The translations under genes and the position numbers were made by a program. The notes below the pieces were generated by a model. That model had not been told where the DNA came from. It was given only the letters and a program-made list of their open reading frames with translations, and ran no database searches. From Octopus sinensis (taxonomy: Eukaryota), in the NCBI RefSeq assembly GCF_006345805.1, contig NC_043015.1:2914001-2978000 (forward strand): a stretch of DNA of 64,000 nt, in the 5' to 3' direction. This document shows positions 3,827 through 64,000 of the stretch, in pieces (within the stretch, counting starts at the first letter, position 1; every line of letters starts with the position of its first letter).

Positions 3827-4237
3827 ACTCTTTACTCTTTACTCTTTTAATTGTTTCAGTCATTTGACTGCGGCCACGCTGGAATACCGCCTTTAGTCGA
3901 GCAAATCGACCCTAGGACTTATTCTTTGTTAGCCTAATACTTATTCTATCGGACCCTTTTGCCGAACCGCTAAGTGACGGGGACGTAAACACACCGGCAT
4001 CAGTTGTCAAGCAATGCTAGAGGGACAAACACAGACACACAAACACACACATACATATATATATACATATATACGACAGGCTTCTTTCAGTTTCCGTCTA
4101 CCAAATCCACTCACAAGGCATAGGGCCGGCCCGGGGCTATATCAGAAGACACTTGCCCAAGATGCCACGCAGTGGGACTGAACCCGGAACCATGCGGCTG
4201 GTTAGCAAGCTACTTACCACACAGCCACTCCTGCGCC
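3827..4237 (-). mobile_element. Full-length tRNA-derived SINE, family A (octopus-type, CORE-like box, internal (TA)/(TG) tract)
   Basis: Minus strand begins GGCGCAGGAGTGGCTGTGTGG (A box) ...GGTTCAGTCCC (B box) ...CTTGGGCAAGTGTCTT and ends in a (GTAAAAGA)n-like tail. Flanked by a 7-bp direct repeat TGTTGTT (3820-3826, 4238-4244). At least six other copies are in the window. Confidence 0.92.
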
Positions 4238-6433
4238 TGTTGTTTCCTTTTTTTCTGGACAACTTCATGCATTGGTGAACAACTAGTGGCGTTGGAGAAG
4301 ATGACGCGAAATGTTCCAGTTAAAAAAAAATTAAGCTGACATGGAAGAGAGGAAGTCAGCGGAATACTGGAAATGAGTTAGGTGTATCATAATGATTCGA
4401 GATTGGTCTAAAAATGCTGATATCATGACAGATGCTCCATGCCCTGTGAACACTGTAAAGTCTGTAAGACCTAACACGAACAAGTGTTAGGAAAGGAAGC
4501 CGTTGACAGTAGGAAGAGCCAAAGCAAGTGTTTAGGCACTCTCAATTATTCCGGAGAACGGAACCTTTCCCCGCATCTTTGAATAAGGCCTTCATTTCAA
4601 TTCAAAGCCGTTTTTATACTGTCGTTAATGCTTGCGCTTATTCCGTAATGTCAATGTTAACGATCTTTAAATTTTATTCATTTTATACCTTAGCCTCTTT
4701 TATAACATCAACATCAAATTGTAATTAAACCATTAATTGTCGTATGGGACGATCAAACTACAGTTTCATAAGTGTCAACGATTCATCTAATTCATTAAGA
4801 AAGAGTCACTGGCCCTAACGTAATTATGTAAATTAAACCGGTTATTTGGTTTGTTAATATACTTTAAATTTGATAAATACTCTTAGATATTTTCGTTGCA
4901 TGCTAGATCGGCAATCAAAAAATTTTTTCGCCAAAAAAGAAGGTAACAAATAAAAGACCTGTCTAACTTTCTTTCTAATTTTTTCTAATTATACTAGCTT
5001 TCTTTATATTACCTTCCGACGTGAACTTCTACTTCCGTAAATGTCCGTTTATCACATAAACGAACCTACTTCTCTTAGGCTTATTTATGTAATAAGTTTG
5101 TGCACGCAATAGATTAATATTAAATTCAATGTAGAGGAAAGCATGCTCCACATCTCTGGGCCGTCTTGACTCTATAGGGAAATTGATGGTGGCTACGTTG
5201 AGCAAACTGTTGTGTCCTGTTCGCCACAATCTAGTTGATAATTTGAGATGTTTCAAATATAATTTAACTTTTTGATATATAAGTGTATTTTCTTTACTTT
5301 TTGTACAACCTATCAATTTCCACCCGAATACCTTGTACAAGAATTCCTATATTGTAATTTCGACACTAAATTCCACACCTATCCAATTATTTAAGAATAC
5401 TTTTCATTCTCAAAATTTTCAGTGATATATAATTGTTGTATTTTTATATTTTAGTTTGAGACAACTCCTTTCAAAAAAAAAAAATCCCATATGGTTTCCA
5501 CTGAAATTCATATAACTTAAACAGTATTTCAGTTATTTAAATTTGTGAGAGAACTAGCTTATATTTGGATAGTCATATTCAAGATGTTTCGCAATGCAGA
5601 ATAAAAATCATCCTATTTACAGACATATCAACGTGTTCGTTGCCATAACCGTGCCATAACTAAATGCACAAACACAACTTCAAGAAGAGATTCATTTACA
5701 CATATACACATACATAAGAGAGTATTAATTACAAGCCATGAAACAGATCAACACATAATAATCTGCAGGAGTTGGTGCAACTATAGTTAGATTGTGTAAT
5801 AAGTTGGAGCATGGAAGAGTGTGCTATTTTTTCGAGCGTTATTATATATCGGAAAATGTACAAATCAATATTTGTTATCTTCTATGATGTAATTTTATTA
5901 GAACTGTTTGTAACATGCTCACATATTTATTCACCATTTTTGTCCCATAACCTCTTTATGCATTTACATTTGCAACGGGAATCACGAATATGGACTTTAG
6001 TGTCAGACACCTGCAGAAGACTGCAGAGATCAGAGACTCTATTCTACTAAGATTTTAGTGAATTAAAAAAAGCCTCGACAACTGAATAGAAAGAGAAAGT
6101 TTAGACAGTCGCCCTTCTCGCAAATGTTGAATCCTTTCTCTAATTAGACCCTATACAATATCACACCTGAATAGTAACGTTGCGTTTTCAGAATCTATTG
6201 CAGACAAGATGGCGGTAAATACACCAGTATGCTTTTGGCTGTTGGTTTTTATATACTTTGCACCATTGATTTTGCATGCATTTAAGAACTGAGATGAAGG
6301 CATTTCATACGCTGCGTTAGGGATGCTAACTATTTCATATGAATTATCTAAACTTTCGCACACACACTGTTGGAATCTTTGTCTGCGATGTATACTGTCT
6401 GCGTTTTTCTGCGTTGTATACTGTTGATTGTGA

Positions 6434-12027: not shown

Positions 12028-12673
12028 TATATTTCGTTTTGGTATTTGGTTTGCAAGATTCTTTATGTGAGTCGAGTGTTGGACCATATTCCGTTGTGCC
12101 TGAAGAGAGTCATTCTCTTGTAGTACCTTATAATTTAATACACTCCCAGGTAAACTTCCCATTCATTTACTTACATATTTTTCTAAAATCTTCGTTGCGT
12201 CTTGCAAACATTTTGCAAAGCCTTTTTTTGTGCGCATGCGTATGGGTCAGTGTGTGTACGCATACACATGTATGTATGTATGCATGCATCTAAGTGTATG
12301 TATCCATGTATGTATGTGCGTGTGCATGTATATATTTATGTATATTGCATATTCATGTGTTTGTGTGGTCGTGTCTGTTTTTATGTGAGTCTGTGTTTGC
12401 ATGTGTGGTTGAGTGTGTTGACTTCCATCTCCTTGTGTGCGCATCTCTCAGTGTGTCTGTTAGTGTGAATGGGCTTTTGTAACGATGCATTGTGTCTTTA
12501 TGTATGGATGTGTATCTCTATATATGTGGGCGTGTCTCCATATGTGTTTTTGCGTGAAGTGAAGTGGGTGTGTATAAGGTCATGTGTTTCACTCTGCATT
12601 ATTCTACGTTTATCTGTTAATACCACCTGTATGTCTATCTGTTTACTTTCATATCCATTTGCACTAACATATA

Positions 12674-12831
12674 GGCGTAGGAGTGGCTGTGTGGTACGTA
12701 GCTGCTTACCAACAGTGTTCTGGGTCCAGTCCCGCTGCGTGGCACCTTGGGCAAGTGTCTTCTACGATAGCCTCGGGCCGATCAAAATTTGTGAGTGGAT
12801 TTGGTAGACGGAAACTGAAACAAGCACGTTG

Positions 12832-12930
<99 letters not shown>

Positions 12931-12959
12931 TTATATATATAATATATATATATATATAT

Positions 12960-12997
<38 letters not shown>

Positions 12998-13240
12998 CGT
13001 GAGTGAATGTTTGTGTGTGTGCGCGTGTGTGCGTGTTTGTGTGCCTGTTTTTGTCTCCCTAACATCGCTTGACAACCAATTCTGGTGTGTTTACGTCCTG
13101 GTTACTTAACGGTTCGGAAATGGTGACCGATAAAATAAGTATTAGGCTTACAAAGAATAAGTCCTGGGGTCGATTTACTCGACTAAAGGCGGTGGTCCTG
13201 CATGGCCGCAGTCAAATGACTAAAACAAATAAAAGAGTAA
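12674..13240 (+). mobile_element. SINE family A with expanded internal (TA)n(TG)n tract
   Basis: GGCGTAGGAGTGGCTGTGTGG head, CCTTGGGCAAGTGTCTT box and 3' end GGCCGCAGTCAAATGACTAAAACAAATAAAAGAG. Confidence 0.9.
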
Positions 13241-15194
13241 CAGGGGAAAAGAGTATACACACGAACCCCTCCACATATATATATATACACATACATACAT
13301 TCATCTACATAACAGCTTACTTACCATACTACCTGAATAAAAATATAAGTATGATTATCTACTACGTATATTTCCTGTTTAGTATTTTGGATATGGTATG
13401 TTTTAACTGTTATCGTGTAATTGTTTCATTTATTAGAGTATGGCCATGCTGGTGCATTGTTTTGAAGAATGTTTAGCCGAATATACCAACCCCAAGCAAA
13501 AACCTGGTATTTATTATATCGGTGGATATAGCTGAAACGCGAAAACGCACCATAATCAGTCACCAAGCGAGCATTGGGTTGTAAGGCAATATTTACAAAA
13601 GCAAATGCATGTTATTATGTAATGAATGAATACATCAGTTACTTTATACCGAAAATCTTTCGCTAGATTTTAAACACCATTTGTATTTCGATTTTAAAAG
13701 CAAGTTACACTACGATGAACCTAGATTAAACCACAGAGTGGGATCTACGGTTTATGTTAGATTTGGTAGTATCATATCTGCAGTATCCTGCCAACATTTG
13801 ATACATTCATTACCATTTACATCACACTCAAATCTGTTATTGTACCTAGCGATTTATGGCGTGCTACGTGTTGTTGTGTCTAGGTTGTATTGGATCCTTA
13901 TAGGTAATTCATATCTATCTATCTGTTTATCTGTCAACATACATACACTTATATATATATATATACATAATAGTTTGGGTGTTGTATATGTTTGCTTGAA
14001 ATGATTGTGGTTATGTGAGACTGAGTGAATAGCTATGAAGTTATGTTGAATAAGTCACAGACAATCAACTAGGCGGCGTAAATCATTTTCCACCATTTTG
14101 AATTAATCATAAGTTTCCTTTTCACTGTCGCGACATCATGCTTCAAATACAGATAATTTTGCTCTGTATTCAACTCTTAATTTCAAAACGATTTTCTACA
14201 CACTTATTTAATCTCTACATCTAATTTTGCATTAGTAATATGCTAGTTCAGAGGCGTATGATTTCTAAATATTCATTTATTATTACATATATCAATACAC
14301 CAGTAACATTAGTTTATATGGACTTAGTGATATAATACGACTTAATAACAATGTAATATGATTAACAAATTTCCATACATGCATTTATTTGTGAGCATTA
14401 CTTATGAAGTGCAGTTGTTATTTATTTCCGGTAGATATGTCTTGAAGATACCCTGGAAATATATTAGCGAAACAATATTTATCTCATCTTGCATAATTTG
14501 TTTTATATCCGTATCAACACATTTCCTGCTTCAATAATATTGGTTTTTCAACATATTTAACACCACGATAAAGGTATTCGTGTGAACTGCACGCCTATAA
14601 CAGTTTTGTTATATTTTTATCTAAGCCTCTGATATTCAGAAGCATATTACATTATTTCTCAAGTTATATAATCAGTTTGAGAAGTTTATTTTATCACAGA
14701 ATACTGCTGAGAGGTATTGACATGTTGATTTAGGTAATATACGCTGATATCAAGACAATCAGAACGCATTCGCCGTTCGTTTATGTTAGGTGGGGATTTT
14801 TTCTATCAGGGTCTATAAAATATCTCTCAAACACAGAATTACCACAACTGAGTCAAAAGCACAAACGTATATGTCTTTTATACACATAAATATTTCCGCG
14901 TTTCAGTGATTGGACAGCGGTTGTCTTGAGGCATGTTACAGTAGAATTTTAGGCAGATTAGTCGACACCAGTACTTCAGTTTTAACGCTGGTAATTAATC
15001 AATAGATTGTTCGCCACATGGACAAATTAAGAGTTCGTAAACACACGAACATCGGTTGTGAGGCGGTGGCGCAGGAAGGAACAAAGGCACAAACACACAC
15101 ACGTACGCGCGCAGCGGCGCACGCTCATAAATACACGCATACACAAACGAACAATCACGCACAGACGTATACATACACACACACACAAACACAC

Positions 15195-16203: not shown

Positions 16204-16623
16204 AATTATAAAATAGGGTATCTACGAGATACCACCATGCTGAAAATAGCAGCCATGAACCGACTTTAAAAGCACCTTAAGTTTTCTTATACCAGCATGG
16301 AGAATAGAAAAAGAGACAATATGGAACTACTAAAAAATTACAGGATAATTCTAGATCCCGGATTATTGACTTTGAATTTAGAAATGCTTTGCCTCATTAG
16401 TAGAATATCCGTAGAAAGAAACATAAATACATATATATATATATATAAATGCAAAGGTAGACATCCGGGATCTAGAATAATCCAATAATTTTTTACTAGG
16501 TTCATCTTGTCTCTTTTTCTTTTCTCCATGTTGCTAAATGAAAACTTAAGGTGGTTTTAGAGTCGGTTCATGGCTGCTATTTTAAGCATGGTAGTATCTC
16601 GTAAAATACCCTCTTTTATAATT
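16204..16623. mobile_element. Fold-back MITE-like element with ~175-bp inverted arms
   Basis: 16204-16380 is the imperfect reverse complement of 16446-16623 (e.g. AAAATAGCAGCCATGAACCGACT / AGTCGGTTCATGGCTGCTATTTT), with a ~65-bp spacer. TSD not resolvable because the left flank is (TA)n. Confidence 0.85.
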
Positions 16624-21612: not shown

Positions 21613-22696
21613 TATTTACAAACTTGTTTGTCAATAAAATAACTGTTCTTGATAGATGTTTTTTTTAAATACTTTTTGTATAAATTTACTATCTTCTAAC
21701 ACCTGGATCCTTGTATCCTACCTTTACAAAGAATTATACAAGAACACACACACACACACACACACTTATATTTATATATACTAACAGAGACACGCATGTG
21801 CATCTTAACACCTTTTGTTCCGTTTCTACAAAATATTAACAATCGATAATTTTTGACGCTGAAGAAAGCTTTAACGTTCTTGTACGTAACAGCTAAATTC
21901 TATCACTCCCAGATTTACATAACTTTTGTTGCAGATGAAAATGTTTTGCGTAGTTGCAAATTTAATAGAAAAAATAAATCCCATTTGATTAGAGTGTGTC
22001 AATCAAATTAAGGAGAAAGAACACGCTTAGTAAATATTATTTGGCTCACTCTAGATGTCAATATTCTCATACTTCAACTTACTATTTGAAACTTAATGCA
22101 TATTTACTTATAATGTATACAATTTACGCGTGCTCTTTTTTTTTTACACGTTAACTGTTTTTAGGGGTTTTTTTGTTGCTTTTCTAAGAAAAGAAATTTG
22201 TACGTAGTACGAGTCTTTTTGTTTAGTACTTTATTGAATAACGTTTACACAAATATGAAATTAGATGTGTTGCATATAAGGATTATTACTTCATTGTCAA
22301 AATGTGCCGTTTGAATGTCGCAGACATTACAAGTGGCATTGTTTTTACAGAAGGTATTTTTTCTTTAGAAATGACAGATAATAATGATGGAGACGCATAC
22401 AAACACTCACACACATACTTCCTCATCCTCTGTCTGACTGTTGGTCTGTCTCTTTCACTCTCTATCTCTCTCTCGCTCTCTCACTCTTACACACACACAT
22501 CACACACGCACACACGCACGCACACACTAACGCACACGTATATTTATGCATATCCAGTGAAGATTTATTATGTTATTTTGTGGAGAATAGTGCACTGTAT
22601 AACCTGAAATCACATATACCTTTCTTTCGCTTTCACACTGTTGAAAACTCATTACCCTTCCTGACCCTAGTCATGTCAGGACATTACATATTTGCA

Positions 22697-22912
22697 TTAC
22701 TCTTTTACTCTTTTACTTGTCTCAGTCATTTGGCTGCGGCCATGCTGGAGCACAACCTTTAGTCCAGCAAATCGACCCCAGGACGTATTCCTTGTAAGCC
22801 TAGTACTTATTATATCAGTCTGTTTTGCTGAACTGCTAAGTTACGCGCTCTTAAACACACCAGCATCGGTTGTCAAGCGGTGTTGGGGGACACACACAAA
22901 CACACAAACATA
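22697..22912 (-). mobile_element. SINE family A, 3' half
   Basis: TACTCTTTTACTCTTTTACTTGTCTCAGTCATTTGGCTGCGGCCATGCTGGAGCAC matches the 3' end of the other copies. Confidence 0.85.
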
Positions 22913-23475
22913 TACGTATTTCTGACCACCTTCAATTGCGTTACACATTTGGCAACATGCCAAATATCCTATCGTTAAAATGATCAAATGCCCTATTCAG
23001 TCGCCACTTCTAATGCTTTGGTCAGTGCCTTAGTGTATGAACCTGCAGGCATGTGTACTCGAATGTATATATGTGTATTTGTGTGTGTATGTGTGTGAGT
23101 GTGTGTATGCTACAATGAAAAGTGTATAAATATACACGTGAAAGAATTATTGCAACGTATCATCACTTAGTGGTTTTTCAACAATAGTGATTTAGTTAAA
23201 AGCGATTTTATGCCACATAATAAAATAGAAATATCAGAAATTAAATTAAAGTGACTTCAAGCGCTAAAACCTTGTATTGATTAATATATCAACATTTTAT
23301 GCTAATATTTAATGAGAAAATATATATATAGAACATATTTCACGACTGACTTTTGTTTTTATAATAAAAAAAATTAATAGGAAGCAGAATTTATAACGTT
23401 AAAATGAATGGGTATAGCTATTTCAGTCAATAAGAGAGTCTGATTTTCAAATGGAAATGTTGAATATGCTTTGTC

Positions 23476-27400: not shown

Positions 27401-27960
27401 GCGTTTTGCAACCACACTGGAATGAGGAAGATAACATCTTCATTTGAACTTAATATAAAATATCAATGAGTATAATATATAAAATGAAGGAGTCCTAAAG
27501 TGAAAGAGACGTTGTATGCAGATGATATTGAAATGATGGATATCTTTACACACGAGACATCTAAATTGATAACACAAATGTCTCCATGAATTAAGTAATT
27601 GCACGATCGTGTTTTCTCAAGAAGCGTACTGAAATAAAATTGCTGTCAATTAATTTATACAATCACGTTCCTTAACAGGTTAAGCATATGTATATGAACG
27701 AAGTATGCACTCATGCCATATAGCTCATTTAGCAAAATATTTGTTCCCTCTATGATTATGTTCTTAATACAATACTTCTCGAAAAATTACCCCTTCTTTA
27801 CTTTTGCTGCTTCCAGTTCGGCGTCTTGATACCAATTACTTGATAGCAGCTAATATTTAGCATTGGTGTTTTATAGATTATATTCGAAGCTGTTTGCTAT
27901 TATCCGGAATACTACTTAAGGGAGATCCCTACCAAATAAGCAGGACATCTCTACACACAT

Positions 27961-28361
27961 ACTCTTCACTTGTTTCAGTCATTTGACTGCGGCCATGCTG
28001 GAGCACAGCCTTTAGTCGAGAAAATCGACCCCGGGACTTATTCTTTGTAAGCCCAGTACTTATTTTATCGGTCTCTTTTGCCGAACCGCTAAGTGACGGG
28101 GACGTAAACACACTAGCATCGGTTGTCAAGCAATGCTAGGGGGACAAACACAGACACACAGACATATACACACACTTATATATATATATACATATATACG
28201 ACAGGCTTCTTTCAGTTTCCGTCTACCAAATCCACTCACAAGGCATTGGTCGGCCCGGGACTATAGCAAAAGACACTTGCCCAAGATGCCACGCAGTGGG
28301 ACTGAACCTGGAACCATGTGGTTGGTTAGCAAGCTACTTACCACACAGCCACTCCTGCGCC
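27961..28361 (-). mobile_element. Full-length SINE family A
   Basis: Highly similar to 3827-4237 over head, body and tail. Confidence 0.92.
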
Positions 28362-28830
28362 TATATATAACAACCGATACTCTTCGGCTTTCAAGGTATA
28401 TCATATATGTAGAGAACTGTGTTCTGTCATCCATCGGGTAAATATATGTTATGAAATCGAGGATTCTATGGATAAAATGTTTTGAGTAATAATATTTAAG
28501 CTTCACAAGGAATATAAAATGATGTAAAAGAAGATAAAGATGCGTATGAGGAAATTTACCATTGCTCAATATAAATGAGTAATAAATATTTAATCAACAG
28601 AATGATTTCAAATAACTGTCTATAAAGGATAATCTAATCAAAACTTGAATTGCAAATAGTTTCCTTCTAACTTAACGAACAATTCCACATCATAAAACGG
28701 AGAGTAGATAAACGAAAAACTTTAAATAGTTAAATCGAAGGATATTCAAGTGAAGACCCGGGTTTGAAATTACAATAGTCACTAATCGATGCAGTAAAAC
28801 CATGTATAAGTCTATTTGGGAATGTATATA

Positions 28831-30301: not shown

Positions 30302-30705
30302 AGCATTAATAAATCTCCGAACGAGATGTAAACAGTAACTGCTCGACAACTTAAAGTGTACTAGCCATCTGAATGTGGCTAACCACTGGGGGTTGGTGTT
30401 ACTGACGCTTTTAGCCCCAGGAGATCGTCGTCTCCAGCTGGCTTTACACACAATTTCAGTGCCCTTCTGATATTTGCAAAGAGCGGTCATCCCCTCTCGG
30501 AAACCTAAGTGATACATACGGACTATAGTTTCGAGGTTTTTGCCTCTCGTCAACGTATGGTAAACACCGGTTTTCGATAAAGGAGACCTGTTTGCAAAAT
30601 CTATTTAATGTCTAAACTCTCTGAAAGCATTAATAAATCTCCGAACGAGATGTAAACAGTAACCGCTCGACAACGTAAAGTGTACTAGCCATCTGAATGT
30701 GGCTA
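30302..30705 (-). mobile_element. Retrozyme-like / Penelope-pLTR-like element: 324-nt unit plus 80-nt terminal redundancy, inserted in (TA)n
   Basis: 30302-30381 and 30626-30705 are direct repeats with 2 mismatches in 80. One hammerhead lies inside, there is no credible ORF, and (TA)n flanks both sides. Confidence 0.8.
30515..30559 (-). ncRNA. Type I minimal hammerhead ribozyme
   Basis: Minus strand reads CATACG-TTGACGA-GAGG-caaaaa-CCTC-GAAA-CTATAG-TC-CGTATG. Helix I is 6 bp, helix II is 4 bp, helix III is the palindrome ACTATAGT, and the triplet is GUC (predicted cut between 30521 and 30520). The only core deviation is C3U. Confidence 0.85.
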
Positions 30706-35651: not shown

Positions 35652-36035
35652 GGAGTGGCTGTGTGGTAAGTAGCCTGCTAACCAACCACATGGTTCGGGG
35701 TTCAGTCCCACTGCGTGGCATCTTGAGCAAGTGTCTTCTGCTATAGCCCCGGGCCGACCAATGCCTTGTGAGTGAATTTGGTAGACGGAAACTGAAAGAA
35801 GCCTGTCGTATATATGTATATATATATATGTGTGTGTTTGTCCCCCTAGCATTGCTTGACAACCGATGCTGGTGTGTTTACGTCCCCGTCACTTAGTGGT
35901 TAGGCAAAAGAGACCGATAGAATAAGTACTGGGCATACAAAGAATAAATCCCGGGGTCGATTTGCTCGACTAAAGGCGGTGCTCCAGCATGGCCGCAGTC
36001 AAATGACTGAAACAAGTAAAAGAGTAAAAGAGTAA
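35652..36035 (+). mobile_element. Near full-length SINE family A
   Basis: GGAGTGGCTGTGTGGTAAG...AAACAAGTAAAAGAGTAAAAGAG. The first few bases of the head are missing. Confidence 0.92.
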
Positions 36036-36436
36036 GATTTCTAAATCCTGGTACCTGGGTTCTATGAAGCATAAGACACCGAAATCTAATCATTCCCCTG
36101 AAGGAATCGTCTATACACTGGAGGGTTACAGAACCGTCACTCTGTGGAGGAGTGGTAAATTGATTTCTCCGTCGCTAATGCTTCACTGGTACACAATTTC
36201 CATGCGCTCAAACAGGTGAAGTGCGAAGTTTATATCAGCAGGATTTTTAATTAAGGACATAAAGAATAGGAATAAGCGGTTCTGAATATTGGTAACGAGG
36301 TACCGAATAAAATGTTAGCATCCATAACAAGCCGAAATGAAACTACTTGATGCTATTTTGCTATAAGCCTATAAATGATAAGGTCATCGTATTTCAATAA
36401 TGATATACAGAGTAAAATCATATATACATATATGCA

Positions 36437-36473
<37 letters not shown>

Positions 36474-36478
36474 GTATG

Positions 36479-36543
<65 letters not shown>

Positions 36544-36544
36544 T

Positions 36545-37046
36545 TGGCCTGTTAAGGCCATTCCTAAATTGTTATATATTTACATTTTAGTCTCATGACT
36601 ATTTTTCTTTTCCACTGGGCCGCTGGTAGTGATAAATTTCTATCGAATTTTTTACTACCCTAAATTGATTAATTGATTATTTTCTGACTAATTCTGAGAT
36701 TGATTCGGCAGTTTATATTTGCAGCTGATAAGATTGGCGCGATTGCGCGGGTCTTCGAAAATTTAAGACAGATATTCCGGAGGCTTCGATGCGTTAGCCT
36801 CGTGTATATTTGCCTCCACCAAAGGTTTCTTTACTGACGAAGCGTGACCTATGGTAGCTTAGCTTAATTTAATTTAATTAAGCTGGTCTATCATTAAAAA
36901 CGCAGAAACGATGCATCGTCTAAAAGATGAATTAGGGTAAACGTTTTTAATTTTTCACTTATTTCCGAATTATATTACTTTGCGGTTAGAGTTATGGCTG
37001 CTCTGTCTAGTGGACGAATGGCCTGTTAAGGCCATTCCTAAATTGT

Positions 37047-37053
<7 letters not shown>
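36545..37053 (+). mobile_element. Retrozyme-like / Penelope-pLTR-like element: 474-nt unit plus 35-nt terminal redundancy, inserted in (TA)n
   Basis: TGGCCTGTTAAGGCCATTCCTAAATTGTTATATAT occurs identically at 36545-36579 and 37019-37053. One hammerhead fold lies inside, and (TA)n flanks both sides. Confidence 0.72.
36828..36927 (+). ncRNA. Type I hammerhead ribozyme with extended helix II
   Basis: TCTTTA-CTGACGA-A-GCGT..[ATGGTAG..AGCTTAATT/AATTAAGCT..CTATCAT]..ACGC-A-GAAA-CGATGCATCG-TC-TAAAAGA. Both core boxes are intact, helix III is the palindrome ACGATGCATCGT, and the GUC cut is predicted after 36920. The base of helix II is a non-canonical A.A. Confidence 0.72.
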
Positions 37054-37088
<35 letters not shown>

Positions 37089-37095
37089 TACATGC

Positions 37096-37167
<72 letters not shown>

Positions 37168-37590
37168 TATATATATATATATGTATCCATAAATAAGGCT
37201 GCCAAATAGCACTTGCAATTGCTAGAAATAACATCTAAAGTATAAATCAAACAGACAAAAAATCCCTAGCCTCACGTTGTGGCTTTCCGCTCGCGGACCT
37301 ATTTCTGCTCGCAGTCCCATTGAACTTCTCCTGAGGGTAGTGAGTTTGTGTGATTATTCGAGTTATATTTTTAGTTCTTATTTCTAGCAATATTTTGCAC
37401 CATTATTTATGTATTCTACCTGTTTGTCTTCTTAATTCTTGTAACCACATATATTATGACGTATTTAATATATCGTTACAATATCTTAGTACGCACACAC
37501 ACACACACACACATATAATATATATATATATATATATGAATATAAATAAATATATATATATATATATACATATATTATATATAAATATAA

Positions 37591-45907: not shown

Positions 45908-46529
45908 TATATATATATATAATGTGTGCATTATGTGGTCGCTTGAGCTGAAAATATGCAGACCTATGTTAAAAGTGCTGGCAAGTTTGCATGACAACTA
46001 TTTTTTTCCTCAAATGAAAGGACAAAATCCTCTAGGACAAAACTCCTCATCTTATAAATGTGGCCCCAGTACACCCGAATGAAATCGGGGTATATTAACC
46101 AAAATGTCAAAAGGGGTCTAAATGGGGCTGGAAGGGGATTAAATTTTAAAGGAGCGGGTGTTTAGGAATTCTCTGTTACATCAAGCTAGAAAATTTGCGC
46201 CAGCCTTTTAACCCTTTCGTTACTATATTTCTGACCAAAATACACCTTATGTGTTTCAATTAATTTCTAACATAATCATAAACATAGTCTGGTTTCATTA
46301 AACAACTATAACTTTTTTATTTATCAATATATTTATGTAATATTTGGAAGATAATTTAATGAAATGTTCTCAACAAATCCTATACTATAATTTTTGTCAC
46401 AAAGTTACTCTAATTGCAGGTAGATACAGGTAAATTCAACAAAATATAAAATTATTAAAATTTCTGTTCAAACATCGCTATAGAAAATGGGTTATTAGCT
46501 AATATTCAATTGGGTATACAACAAAATTT

Positions 46530-47376
46530 GGCACTGTCATGCTATTAGCTGTCAGAAGTGGAAGTACGTCAACTTCGTGTATTTACGTCAGGTTTTATAC
46601 CTTCGTTAATTTACGCCGTTTATTTACGTACCAGCACGCTGTTAGGTTTATAAAACAATTGAAGTTCAGTTTAAAGTTTATAAATAAATACATTTCATTC
46701 CATGTTCTGTTTAAACTTTATAAATAAATATATTTTGCATTATTCATTATTGTTTATAAAAAAGAAATCACACCAAATCTGCACAAATATATATACATGT
46801 GTATACATTACACATGTATATATATATATATATATACACATGTATATATATATATATGTATACACATGTATATATACATATGTATGTTTATATATATATA
46901 TATATATATATAGTTAAACTATTGACCGCCTAAAAACGGATTTCAACAGACAAATATTACTATAAATGATAATATAAGCATATAACTACTTATACACACA
47001 TACAATAAATACAGACACACACACATTAGTCAGACATATAGCCACATATACACACATACACACGTGTGTATGATCGGTGTATGTGATCGCGGTTGTGGTG
47101 GTGGGTTGGTGGTGGTGATTTGTTCAGATTTGGTGTGATTTCTTTTTTTAAAAACAATAATGAATAATGCAAGAATATATTTATTTATAAAGTTTAAACA
47201 GAACATGGAATGAAATGTATTTATTTATAAACTGAAACTGAACTTCAATTGTTTTATAAACCTAACAGCGTGGTGGTACGTAAATAAACTGCGTAAATTA
47301 ACGAAGGTATAAACTCGACGTAAATACACGAAGTTGAGATACTTTCACTTCTGACAGCTAATAGCATGACAGTGCC
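46530..47376. mobile_element. MITE with ~260-bp TIRs and an 8-bp TSD (Merlin- or Mutator-like)
   Basis: TIRs 46530-46788 / 47118-47376 (GGCACTGTCATGCTATTAGCTGTCAGAAGTG ... CACTTCTGACAGCTAATAGCATGACAGTGCC). Perfect TSD CAAAATTT at 46522-46529 and 47377-47384. Confidence 0.93.
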
Positions 47377-47384
47377 CAAAATTT

Positions 47385-47868
47385 CATTATAGAATTTGTT
47401 ATTCTGGGTAACTTTCTGATACCCATAATAATATTTATGGCAAAATAAGCCTTAATTTCATTTAAGGTTGTGGGAAACCAAAGTATCCTTTCTTTCGCTT
47501 TGTTTACATTTAACGTAACGGTCGTTTCCGCTGTAATGATTTCAAATAGGCTCATTCGAAAAAGTAAAAAGAAATAGTCTAAGGCTTTACTCTCCTGGGA
47601 AAGATGGTGGCTTGGTCCAGTTTCTCAGAAAAATCACTGAAAGAAATAGTTTTTAAATTTTCACTCCATTCAGGTGCCAATTCATTTTCTTTATTGCTGT
47701 CGGAACTCTCGGATTCTCTGTTTCATTTTCGGAAAATGATACATGGGATTCATTATCAAATACCACGTGCTTTTTTTTTTCAGTCATAGAGTTAGATTTA
47801 TCAAGGTCTTCAGTAGAAAAGCCTTCGAAATCTGACTCGCTGCTTGATATAATGAAATTCGTAACCAT
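47385..47868 (-). pseudogene. piggyBac transposase N-terminal fragment (frameshifted)
   Basis: Acidic N-terminus MVTNFIISSSESDFEGFSTEDLD, then DYFFLLF and LFEIITAET...WFPTTLNEIKAYFAINIIMGIRKLP, the W..TT..EIKA.F.I.I.MGI.KLP motif of PGBD/DDE_Tnp_1_7 proteins. Confidence 0.85.
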
Positions 47869-49893: not shown

Positions 49894-50125
49894 GCAGCGT
49901 GGAAAGTGTTTATAAGCCACTTCAGAAACACACAAAACCGTTAGATTCACTTCAACATTTAAATTTAATCTGTTCAAATATTTTCCTCGCTTTGAGCCCG
50001 CGAGCTGTTCATTGACAAAGCTTCATTTCAGCGACGAAATTATTTTGACAAATTAAATTTAAATGTTGAAGTGAATCTAAAGATTTTGTGTTTCTTAAAT
50101 GGCTTATAAACACATTCCACACTGC
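49894..50125. repeat. Inverted repeat with ~97-bp arms and a ~38-bp spacer
   Basis: 49894-49991 is the imperfect reverse complement of 50030-50125 (TTAGATTCACTTCAACATTTAAATTTAAT / ATTAAATTTAAATGTTGAAGTGAATCTAA). Confidence 0.9.
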
Positions 50126-50262
50126 ATTTGTTTATATATATATATATATATGTATGCATGTATGTATATATGTGTGTGTATCCCGATCCATTTCAAGTTA
50201 TATATTTGTGTATACACACACACACACATATATATACGTATATATATATATACGTATACATA

Positions 50263-50426
50263 GGCGTATGAATGGCTGTGTGGTAAGTAGATTGCTAACC
50301 AACCACATGGTTCCGGGTTCAGTTCCACTGCGTGGCACCTTGGGCATGTGTCTTCTGCTATAACCCCGGGCCGACCAATGCCTTGTGAGGGATTTGGTAG
50401 ACGGAAACTGAAAGAAGCCTGTCGTA

Positions 50427-50466
<40 letters not shown>

Positions 50467-50664
50467 TGTGTGTGCGTGTTTGTGTGTCTGTGTTTGGCCC
50501 CCTAGCATTGCTTGACAACCGTCACATAGCGGTTCGGCAAAAGAGACCGATAGAATAAGTACTGGGCTTACAAAGCATAAGTCCCGGGGTCGATTTGCTC
50601 GACTAAAGGCGGTGCTCCGGCATGGCAGCAGTGAAATGACTGAAACAAGTAAAAGAGTAAAAGA
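50263..50664 (+). mobile_element. SINE family A with a small internal deletion
   Basis: GGCGTATGAATGGCTGTGTGG head through the AAACAAGTAAAAGAGTAAAAGA tail. Confidence 0.9.
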
Positions 50665-51501
50665 ATATACACATATAATTGTTTGTGTGATAAACAGAAA
50701 ATATAGTCTCAGTCATTAAATGGATGCAATCATCCATCCACAGAAATTACTAATCTTCGAAAGATTAATGAGTTTTTATCACCTCAGGTAATATTTTAAA
50801 AAATATGATTAACGGAATAATTATTTCTCCGTATTACAGTCATACCTTTTTCAGTTGATTGTGCAGCGTATTTGCGTATGTCTCAGTAAAATTGCAGTTA
50901 ATTATTCAGTTGCGCTCACACATATTCAAACATATATTTCTTTTTCAGTGAGAAAATTTGGGGGAATGAGAACAAGTGGAAATAAATTTGAGAAAGTAAG
51001 AAATTTTCATTTCTGTTAATAGAAATTTCATATAACATAGTTATGTCATTGATCATGTGGTGAATCTAATGAGCACGTTCTTTTTAATTCATGCATATTA
51101 CCTACGCCACTAATTATTTCAATTCATTTACAGTAGGTTATAATCCCTTGGCTAGTAGATGTAACGCAGCATATTTCCCACCTATTGACTTACTAACATT
51201 TCTTCACGCCGCTCCATTTATCTTCAAAGAGTAGTTTCTTCATTTTCCGTTATTTTTGTATAGCGTTACACTGCTGAGATTATCTAATCTTCTCACATGT
51301 GCTGTTTTGCATTTATGGAGCCTATGTTTATTATAATATGTCTATAATGTATGTTGCATAGGAATCGATATGCATGTGGTTGTTTATATGTGTTCCATAA
51401 AGAACATAGGGCATTTAATTCAATCATTTATGCATCGGGAGAAAGTTTAGACGTTGCACCAATACCATAATTTGAAACCAATGTTTCTCTAAAGAAAAAT
51501 C

Positions 51502-55665: not shown

Positions 55666-58600
55666 TTATAAATGTGCTAAGCTTATAAACCGATATGACA
55701 CATGAATGAAAATCATCCAGTAAATCTGCTTGCTCGCATGCGCGTGCATATATGCGTGTGTGCGTATATTTAGAAGGATGAGTAAATCTAGGAAAGATGT
55801 TTTGGAATATATATATCTGTATTTGAATTTGAAATCACGCACATATTATTACCATGGTGGACTGTCCCATATAGAAATATTTTGAGGTAGAGCTATTCCA
55901 AAAATGTCGAGCTGAGTTGGCGAAGGTCGAGTTTTTTTGCTTGATTATCATATTTTTGTGTATTTCACCCCGAACGACGTACATTGGCCAAGATACCCAT
56001 AGATCGTTCTAGGACGACAGCAATTCAGCTTTAGGTGACAATAATACCTTCTGACTGCCCCCACACCATATGGGCTTAGCACACGCTACATGATAATGCA
56101 TACTTTGGTTTTGATGCAATATTGGTCTAGAGGAAGCAATATTTTCAGTGATGTATTGAGTGATGATATTTTTACAGATGCAATATGACAAATGCAGTCT
56201 AAGAAAGTTCTGAGAAATATCGTAACACATTGATATCTAGAAAACAAACGACTCACACTAAGATGTACTGCTTGGGCAAGTAGGTCTAGTTGAGTGGTAT
56301 TGATCCTCAGGAGGAATTTTATAAGTGGATACAATCGAAAAGTAACTCGTTTACACGAAAATGCCCATTTCCCAAACATTCCAAACTGCTCATGATATGT
56401 GAAACAGTTGGAAACAGCAGTCCTGAAATTCATTCAGTCGAGATAATCCATTCTGAAAATCACATCGTAACCTCCTTCGGCCAGGAAGGGGAAGTTGTTC
56501 CCCTCTAAATAGGACTTAGATGAAATAGTTTGCGTGGCGGGCCCCTCTTACTCATTAAATGTTACAAGTTTTATTTTAAAAGGAAAATTAATGTGGATAT
56601 GATTGCACGCTTTCATAGGAAATTTTTTTAGAGCTGAAACATAACGGCGTGTGAGGCGTGAGCAAACGTGTCTAGGCGTTGAATACTCGTCATACATAAA
56701 GAAGGTCGGTAATTGCGAGGAGGCAGTTATCCCAATATGCTAGGTTATCGATATTATTTATTTAATTGCCTCCAATAAACCCGCGGTTACGATTTCCCTT
56801 TTACGTTCTTTTATTTTTCTACTTTTGCTTAAAAATATTTTTTGGATGTATTCCCGCACCGTACGATTCATGGTCCTTTCTCAGAGTATGGGATCACGAA
56901 ACACCGTATTAGTAGTAGTAGTTATTGTAGTACTAGTAGTAGTTATAGTAGCAATGATAATGACAATGATAATAATATGCATATATGAATATATATATAT
57001 AATGTTTTTATTATTATTATTATTATTGCGATGTTTCCAAACCCATATATATGTATATATATATATATTGAAGTTCGTTCCTGATAGGTCTGTCTGGCCT
57101 CTTACATCTTCCCTTGATGTACTTCCTCAAATTTTCTATATACGTGTGTGTGTAGTCTGTATGTGTGTAGTATATGTTAAAGAAGGAAATGTAGGTTCTA
57201 AACAGATAACATAACTTTAGTAACATATTTTCAATTTTGATATGCCTATTATTGTTCAAATATCTAACTCATTCAGATTACAAATTTATAAATTAAAATG
57301 GCATTTTGAAAATTGACACAAATGGAAGTTACCTCTTAATTGATTTAGCTATCTCAACAGACAAAACATATAATCATTCGTACATTAATATGTGCATGTG
57401 TGTTTAAGTATTGTTACAAAAAATGAAACCGCTGTAAGTAGGTATGTTTTTTGTTTTTATTTCGTTTGTGTGATTATGTATGTTAACTTGCTTGATATCG
57501 AAGAAGCTATTAACTTGGCAGGTATATTATTTTCTACTATGGTTAATAAGGCTGAAATAAATAAAATGGCAGATTGGCAAGACCTGGGTAATAAATTTCA
57601 TGAACACAAACTGAAACGATATACCCCAATACGTAAATACAATTATCTTAAAAACAGATAACTAATAAAATTACAAATAAAACAATATTACGTAGCTGAC
57701 AATTTCATCTGCAAAAGAAATAAAATGTATCTTAGTCAAAGTTCTGTACAGGTTTATTTCGAAGCACTTCACTAAAGGTAAGAAAAACGTGATGATTAAC
57801 ATTAATAAAATTGAAATTGGCTTCTACATCTCACAGGACCTTTCTCAAATTAATTATTCAATTAATAATACAAGATTGAATAGTTTCTATAATAACACGG
57901 ATAGCAACAATACCGATATATTGCAAAGCAACCGTGATTAATCCAACTATAGAATAAATACGATGAAACCTTCGAGTAGAGAAAGGGTAATAGCCAACGA
58001 ATTTAACCATAAAATTAGAAATAATTAAAACGGAACTAATGATATGGACATGAATGATATTGGCCACAATCTTACAATGACAAATGTAAATAAAATTTGT
58101 ACTTCAAGATTTTAAAATATTTCCCCGTTAAAACATTTTCGCAAGCAAAAACACATAATATATAGGTATAAAATATAATCAGAGGAAATAAATCATTATT
58201 ACATTGGTTATACGAAAAAACATAGTAAGAGAAGAATTGCCGACCTCGAAAACACATTTCGAAACAGAAATAAATTAACCAGCACCAGTCTAAGTCAAAA
58301 GTAAATAAGATAACATAAATTGGGGAAAATCCTATAACATAAGGAATAAACGCTGTAATTTATACACAAATGAAATTAGTATTCCTCCAAATGTTAACAT
58401 CGAAACAAAAATTACTTAATAGTAAAGAAGAAAGAGAATACCCTGCAGACATTCATCTAAATATGTGTTATAAAAGTACATTTAAAAATTAAAATAAAAT
58501 ATGCAAAAAGAATCGAATAAAATATACGTTAAGTAATTGATAAATATAATTAGATAGTTTAATGATATATGTTCTTGAATATAGACCTGTATCACGGATA

Positions 58601-59010
58601 GGAACAATACCGATATCTTCCAAAGCAAGCGTGGTGAATTCAACTATAGAATAAAAGCGATGAAACCTTCTGGTAGAGAAATAATGAAAATAACTGTAAC
58701 ACAAATTTTGATCTGGCGGAACGTGAATGTGGCATTCAAAATAAACAATAACAAAACTAGAAAATAGATATTAAATGAATAAAATGAGTATAAACTAAAC
58801 CTTAGTACCAGCAATTATGCTAATTAATTTCGAAAATAGTTTAATTAATTAAAAATCGTGACACCTGGCTATTTATCTATTTATAGGATTCAACCGGGGT
58901 TACTTGAAAGCTGACATCCCTTTTAAGAGAAATCTATATGCTTGGAATAACATATACTTGTATGTGTGTTTATACAGACAACGAAGTAGAAAGATTATTA
59001 GTGGCAGTAA

Positions 59011-63633: not shown

Positions 63634-63772
63634 ATACCAAATCAATTCACAAGGCTTTGGTCTTCTCGAGGCTATAGCAGAAGACACTTGCCAATGATGC
63701 CACACATTGGGAATGAACCCGGAACCATGTGGTTCATAAGCAAGCTACTTACCACACAGCCACTCTTACGTC
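63634..63772 (-). mobile_element. SINE family A, 5' half
   Basis: GAACCCGGAACCATGTGGTTCATAAGCAAGCTACTTACCACACAGCCACTC is the reverse complement of the tRNA-like head. Confidence 0.85.
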
Positions 63773-64000
63773 AAAATATTTCATTTTAGCATATGTACAA
63801 TATATTCGAGCAGCAAAATTCTTATTTGTAATATTATAACTTTGGAAATATTTATTGATTTCTACAGTTTAGTTCCCTACGCTTGTATATTGGTAATCCT
63901 GAATGTATGAGAATTTATAATTTACATTCCTTATGACGTTATCCACATATTCCAAGACATAAATCTAAAAGAAATTCCTTTGCAGCGAATGTGAAATTAA

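Follow-up and report, generated by a model that had tools for sequence, protein, structure and literature searches.

We conclude that the insert at positions 36545-37053 of the 64-kb stretch of Octopus sinensis DNA analysed here (the window) is probably a solo copy of a non-LTR-retrozyme-like, non-autonomous element of the Penelope-like (PLE) type, which likely moves as RNA and borrows the reverse transcriptase (RT) and endonuclease of a PLE. Its membership in the non-LTR retrozymes, known here from the sequence, from contigs and from predicted folds, is probable rather than proven. The insert (509 bases) consists of one 474-nt unit followed by an exact 35-nt terminal repeat, so that the locus is a solo unit carrying one hammerhead ribozyme.

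The window looks like non-coding animal DNA. Its GC content is 26-38% in 2-kb steps, microsatellites and interspersed repeats are dense throughout, and it contains 80 (TA)n arrays. No host genes were found in it: a Pfam search of 148 of its 207 open reading frames gave a single match, to a transposase fragment that is unrelated to the 474-nt element, and none to an RT or endonuclease. ARAGORN detected no tRNA-type genes, and an Rfam scan of the whole window returned 96 weak matches, none of which was to a hammerhead. An interspersed repeat of ~400 nt with an internal microsatellite, which we take to be an abundant octopus SINE, is present in seven places (3832-4238, 12669-13255, 22688-22918, 27960-28369, 35652-36035, 50255-50676 and 63635-63779), its copies being about 77-90% alike. 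Inverted repeats of 269 nt (94%; 46524-46788 and 47118-47384, within 46524-47624) adjoin the transposase fragment (DDE_Tnp_1_7, 47361-47624, minus strand, E 3.3e-6). Two long imperfect palindromes, MITE-like and about 76-78% self-complementary, are located at 16204-16623 and 49894-50125. A direct repeat of 92 nt (87%; 57893-57984 and 58590-58681, spacing 697) has no hammerhead descriptor match.

The features of the element, together with a neighbouring element discussed below, are as follows.

30302-30705, minus strand: neighbouring element with a 324-nt period and 80-nt repeats (2 mismatches)
36421-36540, no strand: left (TA)n target array, imperfect, with pure runs at 36436-36461 and 36484-36539 (from sequence)
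36541-36544, plus strand: four extra T at the 5' junction, missing from the internal repeat copy (junction comparison)
36545-36579, plus strand: 5' copy of the terminal repeat, a short pLTR or tail-like redundancy, with the TGGCC/GGCCA hairpin
36545-37018, plus strand: 474-nt non-coding unit, 36% GC, 61% paired as a circle (predicted)
36611-36620 with 37005-37014, plus strand: arms of a 10-bp stem (predicted P 0.93; a variant at 37009 preserves the pair)
36625-36673, plus strand: second hairpin, then the 9-nt motif of the terminal-repeat end; candidate second 3' end
36824-36833, plus strand: 5' strand of hammerhead helix I, 6 bp with one bulged A on the 3' side; four more pairs possible
36834-36840, plus strand: CUGANGA core box (CUGACGA; descriptor)
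36841-36904, plus strand: helix II domain, 64 nt
36905-36908, plus strand: GAAA core box (descriptor)
36908-36919, plus strand: palindromic helix III, 12 nt, weak as a hairpin (-1.0) and strong as an intermolecular duplex (-18.7 kcal/mol)
36920-36921, plus strand: predicted cleavage site after C17 (GUC), from the hammerhead consensus position
36921-36933, plus strand: 3' strand of hammerhead helix I
37019-37053, plus strand: 3' copy of the terminal repeat, 98-133 nt past the predicted cut; its final 7 nt merge with the target
37047-37185, no strand: right (TA)n target array, imperfect (from sequence)

The initial annotation had described identical 35-nt terminal direct repeats with a period of 474 nt, and 36545-36579 indeed matches 37019-37053 exactly. 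Since the final 7 nt of the repeat are TA letters that are indistinguishable from the target, its distinctive part is 28 nt long, for which the rough chance is 1e-11. The TGGCC/GGCCA hairpin seen within the repeat is predicted with a probability of about 1.0. The (TA)n noted on both sides is likewise there, the arrays ending at 36539 and starting at 37047; given the 80 arrays of the window, the chance of abutting (TA)n at both ends is about 6e-5. The four extra T at the 5' junction are likely untemplated or were added by repair. For this copy, a solo pLTR plus tail was ruled out because the extension equals the unit's own beginning. A 27-nt piece of the terminal repeat was searched for in metagenome, viral and prokaryotic collections and was not found, which is what an animal repeat would give. 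The longest ATG frame of the unit is 22 aa, and the RT plus GIY-YIG frame by which an autonomous PLE is recognised is absent; the element is not an autonomous PLE. What it has in common with PLE derivatives is the head-to-tail redundancy of 28-35 nt and the AT-rich, microsatellite target. A polymerase III promoter was considered by eye, an A-box-like sequence lying near 36735, and was dropped, the B-box-like sequence near 36784 not being kept in the variants.

A plus-strand hammerhead with CUGACGA and GAAA boxes, a GUC site and a 12-nt palindrome had also been reported; all of these were located, and a relaxed type I descriptor agrees. The descriptor matched at only two places in the 64-kb window, in this element and in the element at 30302; in 60 shuffled windows the mean was 0.13 matches, and 0.03 of equal strength. 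The canonical core (C3-A9, G12-A14, A15.1-U16.1 and H17) is present in full. As C17 is at 36920, the cut is predicted to fall after this position. The internal loop of the helix II domain and the bulge of helix I sit where a loop 1/loop 2 contact would fit. An Rfam scan of 171 nt gave no hammerhead at the element even at E 10. On the minus strand of the unit no ribozyme was found by the descriptor.

Helix II had been described as ~60 nt long and made of three stacked stems. All three stems exist, and we refine their extent to a domain of 64 nt. Stems 2 and 3 form one hairpin, and stem 1 is parted from the rest by a 5x5 internal loop. The order within the domain is thus A.A, a 4-bp stem, the internal loop and a 19-position hairpin (36851-36894), whose single C.U mismatch, at 36858, is replaced by A-U in nearly all family contigs. 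The A.A at the base of helix II (A36841.A36904) is as originally described; alternatively, 36842/36903 can be taken as the usual G-C pair, each strand then having an additional A. The canonical G10.1-C11.1 pair next to the core and the 4-bp, short-loop helix II are absent from the element. PLE hammerheads have been described with an extra base between positions 9 and 10.1 (PMC4209133), which corresponds to the additional A on the 5' strand. At 10.1-11.1 a U.U mismatch has been recorded, and a mismatch beside the hammerhead core should slow cleavage (PMC3088659); U.U is found at the helix II base of an axolotl retrozyme family (PMC7229834).

Folding was predicted for the circle, the monomer and the dimer. 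The circular plus strand reached -131.4 kcal/mol (z -5.3), with none of 60 shuffles as low, and the 111-nt hammerhead region had a z of -4.5, with none of 200 shuffles as low. In the predicted monomer fold the GAAA box pairs with 36825-36830, and the pair probabilities of helices I and III are 0.04 and 0.02 or less; the hammerhead fold is therefore not preferred in the monomer model, where a lone ribozyme is predicted to misfold, by which monomers would be protected. When two copies were folded together, the 12-bp intermolecular helix III formed and helix II was kept (-71.5 vs. -64.8 kcal/mol); this minimum-energy fold is without helix I, the full dimeric hammerhead being at -65.9 vs. -71.5. 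The models thus predict a ribozyme that is inactive in the monomer and released in the dimer. Animal type I hammerheads are established to cleave in a dimer-dependent manner (PMC7229834; PMC6765202). The 10-bp stem (36611-36620/37005-37014) is predicted to close a local domain round the terminal hairpin only in circular or tandem RNA.

Parts of the unit are present in 20 of 24 listed public runs (9 studies, four organism labels), the best share being 0.48. Four of these runs were examined, with contigs placed on the unit at 80% likeness: X1, whose kind is not on record, X4, which we guessed to be DNA, and X9 and X10, which we guessed to be RNA, none being recorded as RNA. They yielded 665, 406, 26 and 17 contigs, respectively. 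Depth summed within the unit is very uneven, from thousands to about 490,000, and was taken neither as structure nor as a copy number. The hundreds of variant contigs and the depth show that the family is large; other copies of the element, on which the initial annotation had made its reading depend, thus exist (665 contigs in X1 and 406 in X4). Between one X10 contig and this copy there are only 2 differences in 262 letters, which, together with the identical terminal repeats, makes a young insertion likely.

Variation in the ribozyme bears on whether cleavage matters to the element. One could suppose that a non-autonomous PLE-type element is copied from uncut linear transcripts, by reverse transcription from the 3' to the 5' repeat, and that its hammerhead is a weak or inactive relic with a structural or protein-binding role. 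The A.A at the base of helix II and the misfolded monomer would fit such an element. In vitro, cleavage-dead anole PLE RNA still inserts (PMC11167929), and 8 of 9 Xenopus retrozyme dimers tested were without cleavage (10.64898/2026.07.22.740005). Against this stands the variation in the family. Among the 40 of 63 variants listed, the only change in a core box is at position 7 (36838), which is free in the hammerhead consensus; two length variants in helix I keep it paired; and in one X10 contig end (a loose end) 36910 and 36917 are altered together so that the helix III palindrome is kept, a double change seen in this one contig. We consider copying from uncut transcripts unlikely, though it is the alternative that fares best. 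The A.A itself is not a private decay of this copy. This was ruled out by record 24 of X9, which spans 36869-37018 with four differences, all elsewhere than 36904, so that A36904 is shared by at least one other contig. The X10 contig end with the double change in the palindrome also has U at 36904, so that A-U stands at the base of helix II there.

The contigs also speak to the extent of the element. All 29 of 29 bins of the unit are covered in each of the four runs. The share of contigs that continue into unlike sequence is 0 in X1 and X4, 0.14 in X9 and 0.35 in X10, and most loose ends, among the 24 of 96 listed, resemble diverged family members. One contig in X9 and one in X10 continue from 37018 at 36545, a step back of 474 nt, the shorter flank being 150 and 98 letters long, respectively; in each of these runs the circle is covered completely by two contigs. 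This head-to-tail joint fits tandem or circular molecules, and the contigs show neither strand, circularity nor level; the joint spans the 35-nt repeat, which is longer than the 31-letter assembly word, so that assembly alone could create it. Were the insert what a deletion had left of a long coding PLE, or the solo pLTR of one, with the depth coming from the ends of the parent and the 474-nt form a rare by-product, one would expect room for a reading frame, yet in X9 and X10 the two contigs close the whole circle and leave none. The complete coverage, the absence of continuation into unlike sequence in X1 and X4, the structure-sparing variation across the unit and the lack of any frame over 22 aa argue against such a parent as well. 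In its favour are the very uneven summed depth and, among the 24 of 96 loose ends listed, one in X1 before 36976 (3 contigs) that is unlike the element; moreover, contigs break at forks, so that the evidence against it is not conclusive. On balance, we regard derivation from a long coding PLE as quite improbable.

Variation across the unit is compatible with an RNA fold. On the plus strand, 6 of the 40 variants listed (of 63) break a predicted pair vs. 15.1 +/- 2.6 for random placement (P about 0.001), and 2 vs. 6.1 expected do so when high-confidence pairs alone are counted (P 0.04), compared with 11 of 40 for the minus-strand fold (P 0.07); these P values are optimistic, because the variants are linked by descent, come from 40 of 63 rows and are judged against a fold predicted from this copy. 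At five sites that differ from this copy in nearly all contigs, the family letters improve the predicted fold by 11.9 kcal/mol, which none of 150 random sets matches. Helix II shows a C-G/U-A exchange: the pair 36843/36902 is C-G in this copy, while U at 36843 makes up 49% (X1) and 92% (X4) of the depth and A at 36902 makes up 96% in both, and one X10 contig has U36843 and A36902 together. At 36885 and 36888 the family switches between Watson-Crick and wobble pairs. Taken together, the data support a constraint on the predicted plus-strand fold, with family variants compatible with its helices.

A constraint that favours G.U-tolerant pairing on one strand argues against a repeat propagated as DNA, whether a dispersed satellite or a Helitron-like rolling-circle element that bears its hammerhead motif by chance or as a passenger. 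A terminal hairpin and AT-rich targets also suit rolling-circle DNA elements, and (TA)n arrays are common, with 80 in the window. The rarity of descriptor matches in shuffles and the presence of a hammerhead in a second, unrelated element of the same layout nevertheless make a DNA-level repeat highly improbable. That the insert is a genomic copy of a viroid-like circular RNA which also replicates from RNA to RNA can hardly be right: the size, the self-pairing and the heterogeneity of the family would suit it, and RNA-to-RNA steps have been raised as a possibility for mussel retrozymes (PMC7229834), but the minus strand is without a detected ribozyme, the fold is branched and not rod-like, and retrotransposition explains the abundance in DNA-type runs.

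The second element, at 30302-30705, has a minus-strand hammerhead of canonical size (Rfam HH9 match, E 1.4e-8), whose core position 3 is U in the copy at hand. The RNA 5' end of this element starts in the arm of a GC-cored hairpin with a few extra junction letters, as in the 474-nt element, and at its 3' end there is hardly any match with the target. The initial annotation had found no sequence similarity between the two, and words shared by them are indeed only 8-9 nt long. It had suggested that the 474-nt element represents an independent family, which agrees with the many related copies, the helix-compatible variants, the plus-strand constraint and the head-to-tail joint in two contigs. For the 474-nt element the evidence supports an RNA-based mechanism resembling that of the 30302 element, "the same mechanism" being read from the architecture alone.

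According to the retrozyme-like reading that we prefer, head-to-tail source arrays would be transcribed on the plus strand, and two hammerheads, joined by their 12-nt palindromes, would cleave behind 36920; the resulting 474-nt monomers may then be circularised. A PLE protein would nick (TA)n, and cDNA would start near 37046-37053, just 3' of the terminal hairpin. Reverse transcription would copy across the ribozyme cut site and stop 28-35 nt into a second round, leaving the terminal repeat. Since such cDNA crosses the cut site, its template must be circular or uncut. A copy with one ribozyme, such as this one, would not release unit-length RNA by itself, and the presence of the ribozyme inside a solo copy, together with a redundancy of the size of a tail, implies copying across the cut site.

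Partial tandems (pLTR), tails and a (TA)n bias are PLE traits (Craig et al. 2021; PMC3846280; PMC8969392). In the anole PLE, cDNA synthesis begins at an internal stem-loop of the RNA, 111-118 nt into the frame, and the ribozyme cuts at +26 (PMC11167929), which by our own subtraction places the start 85-92 nt past the cut; in the element studied here, the terminal repeat with its hairpin lies 98-133 nt past the predicted cut. Two start sites flank the 30-40-nt tail of the anole PLE (PMC11167929). In the octopus element, the 9-nt motif found at the end of the terminal repeat recurs after the second hairpin, at 36659, all three of its occurrences in the window being within the element, and two X4 contigs pass into TA repeats behind 36673. 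The motif and these contigs hint at a second start site of reverse transcription. A bolder proposal is that these are a very abundant family of ~474-nt circular RNAs whose hammerhead has a new architecture, with a conserved 44-nt hairpin inserted in loop II and A.A at the core, switched off as monomers and on by dimerisation or by a bound Penelope protein, whose copies record fixed starts of reverse transcription on a circular template; we think of it as speculative and rather unlikely.

The class of the element, a non-LTR retrozyme or non-autonomous Penelope-like element, is already published; for the family and the shape of the ribozyme we found no description. With metazoan non-LTR retrozymes (Cervera and de la Pena 2020, PMC7229834; 10.64898/2026.07.22.740005) it shares a type I hammerhead, a short non-coding unit of a few hundred nt with less than 50% GC and a strongly self-paired circle (predicted here), as well as membership in a multi-copy family and proposed mobilisation by PLEs; retrozymes have a high copy number and occur as solo monomers beside arrays, and the terminology of Li, Clavereau and Pollet 2026 (10.64898/2026.07.22.740005) would make the locus a solo monomer. 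Such retrozymes are known from a mollusc, the mussel, at 350-390 bp (PMC7229834). The 474-nt unit is longer than the 170-400 nt given for invertebrates and within the 51-972 bp of the 2026 survey. It differs from them in helix II, which is a 64-nt domain with A.A here and a 4-bp stem with a short loop there, and in the form of this copy, a solo unit that lies in (TA)n and has a redundancy of 28-35 nt.

With endonuclease-bearing PLEs (PMC4209133, PMC11167929, PMC8557442, PMC3846280) the element shares a partial tandem end, an extension of the size of their 30-40-nt tail, an AT-rich or (TA)n target, an extra base between 9 and 10.1 followed by a G-C pair, a palindromic helix III and a 3' end that lies roughly 100 nt past the ribozyme cut, at a stem-loop. 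Unlike them, it has neither an RT nor a GIY-YIG frame and bears a second extra A, between 11.1 and G12; its helix II greatly exceeds the 6-8 bp of PLE ribozymes, and its helix III is 4 bp. Canonical type I hammerheads (Rfam clan CL00010, such as HH9) have the same core and topology, and the first 4-bp stem and loop of the element are placed like their helix II and loop 2. The chrysovirus hammerheads said to have a "long helix II" have only 6-8 bp, as opposed to the 64-nt domain (PMC13725137). Non-autonomous Chlamys PLEs, such as MRC1, are similar in being non-coding, pLTR-forming, microsatellite-targeting PLE derivatives, but Chlamys and Naiad elements are almost all without hammerheads, and the usual Chlamys target is (CA)n (Craig et al. 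2021). In full-text literature outside subscription journals, Repbase, Dfam and supplements, no description of the family, of an octopus retrozyme or of a 64-nt helix II domain in a retroelement was found. A giant squid paper, in its accessible text, only counts 235 Rfam hammerheads, and the accessible parts of PMC8967140 and PMC10886601 contain nothing on the 474-nt family.

Since Rfam misses this ribozyme, hammerheads are probably undercounted in such genomes, and a natural hammerhead that tolerates a long insert in loop II is useful for RNA engineering. The element touches on two open questions, namely how animal retrozymes return into DNA and what purpose the ribozyme serves in Penelope elements, and its large young family makes copying across the cut site testable. 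If the circular-template reading is true, the family would provide direct genomic evidence that retrozyme circles are the substrate of PLEs, and the PLE "tail" and the terminal redundancy of retrozymes would be the same thing.
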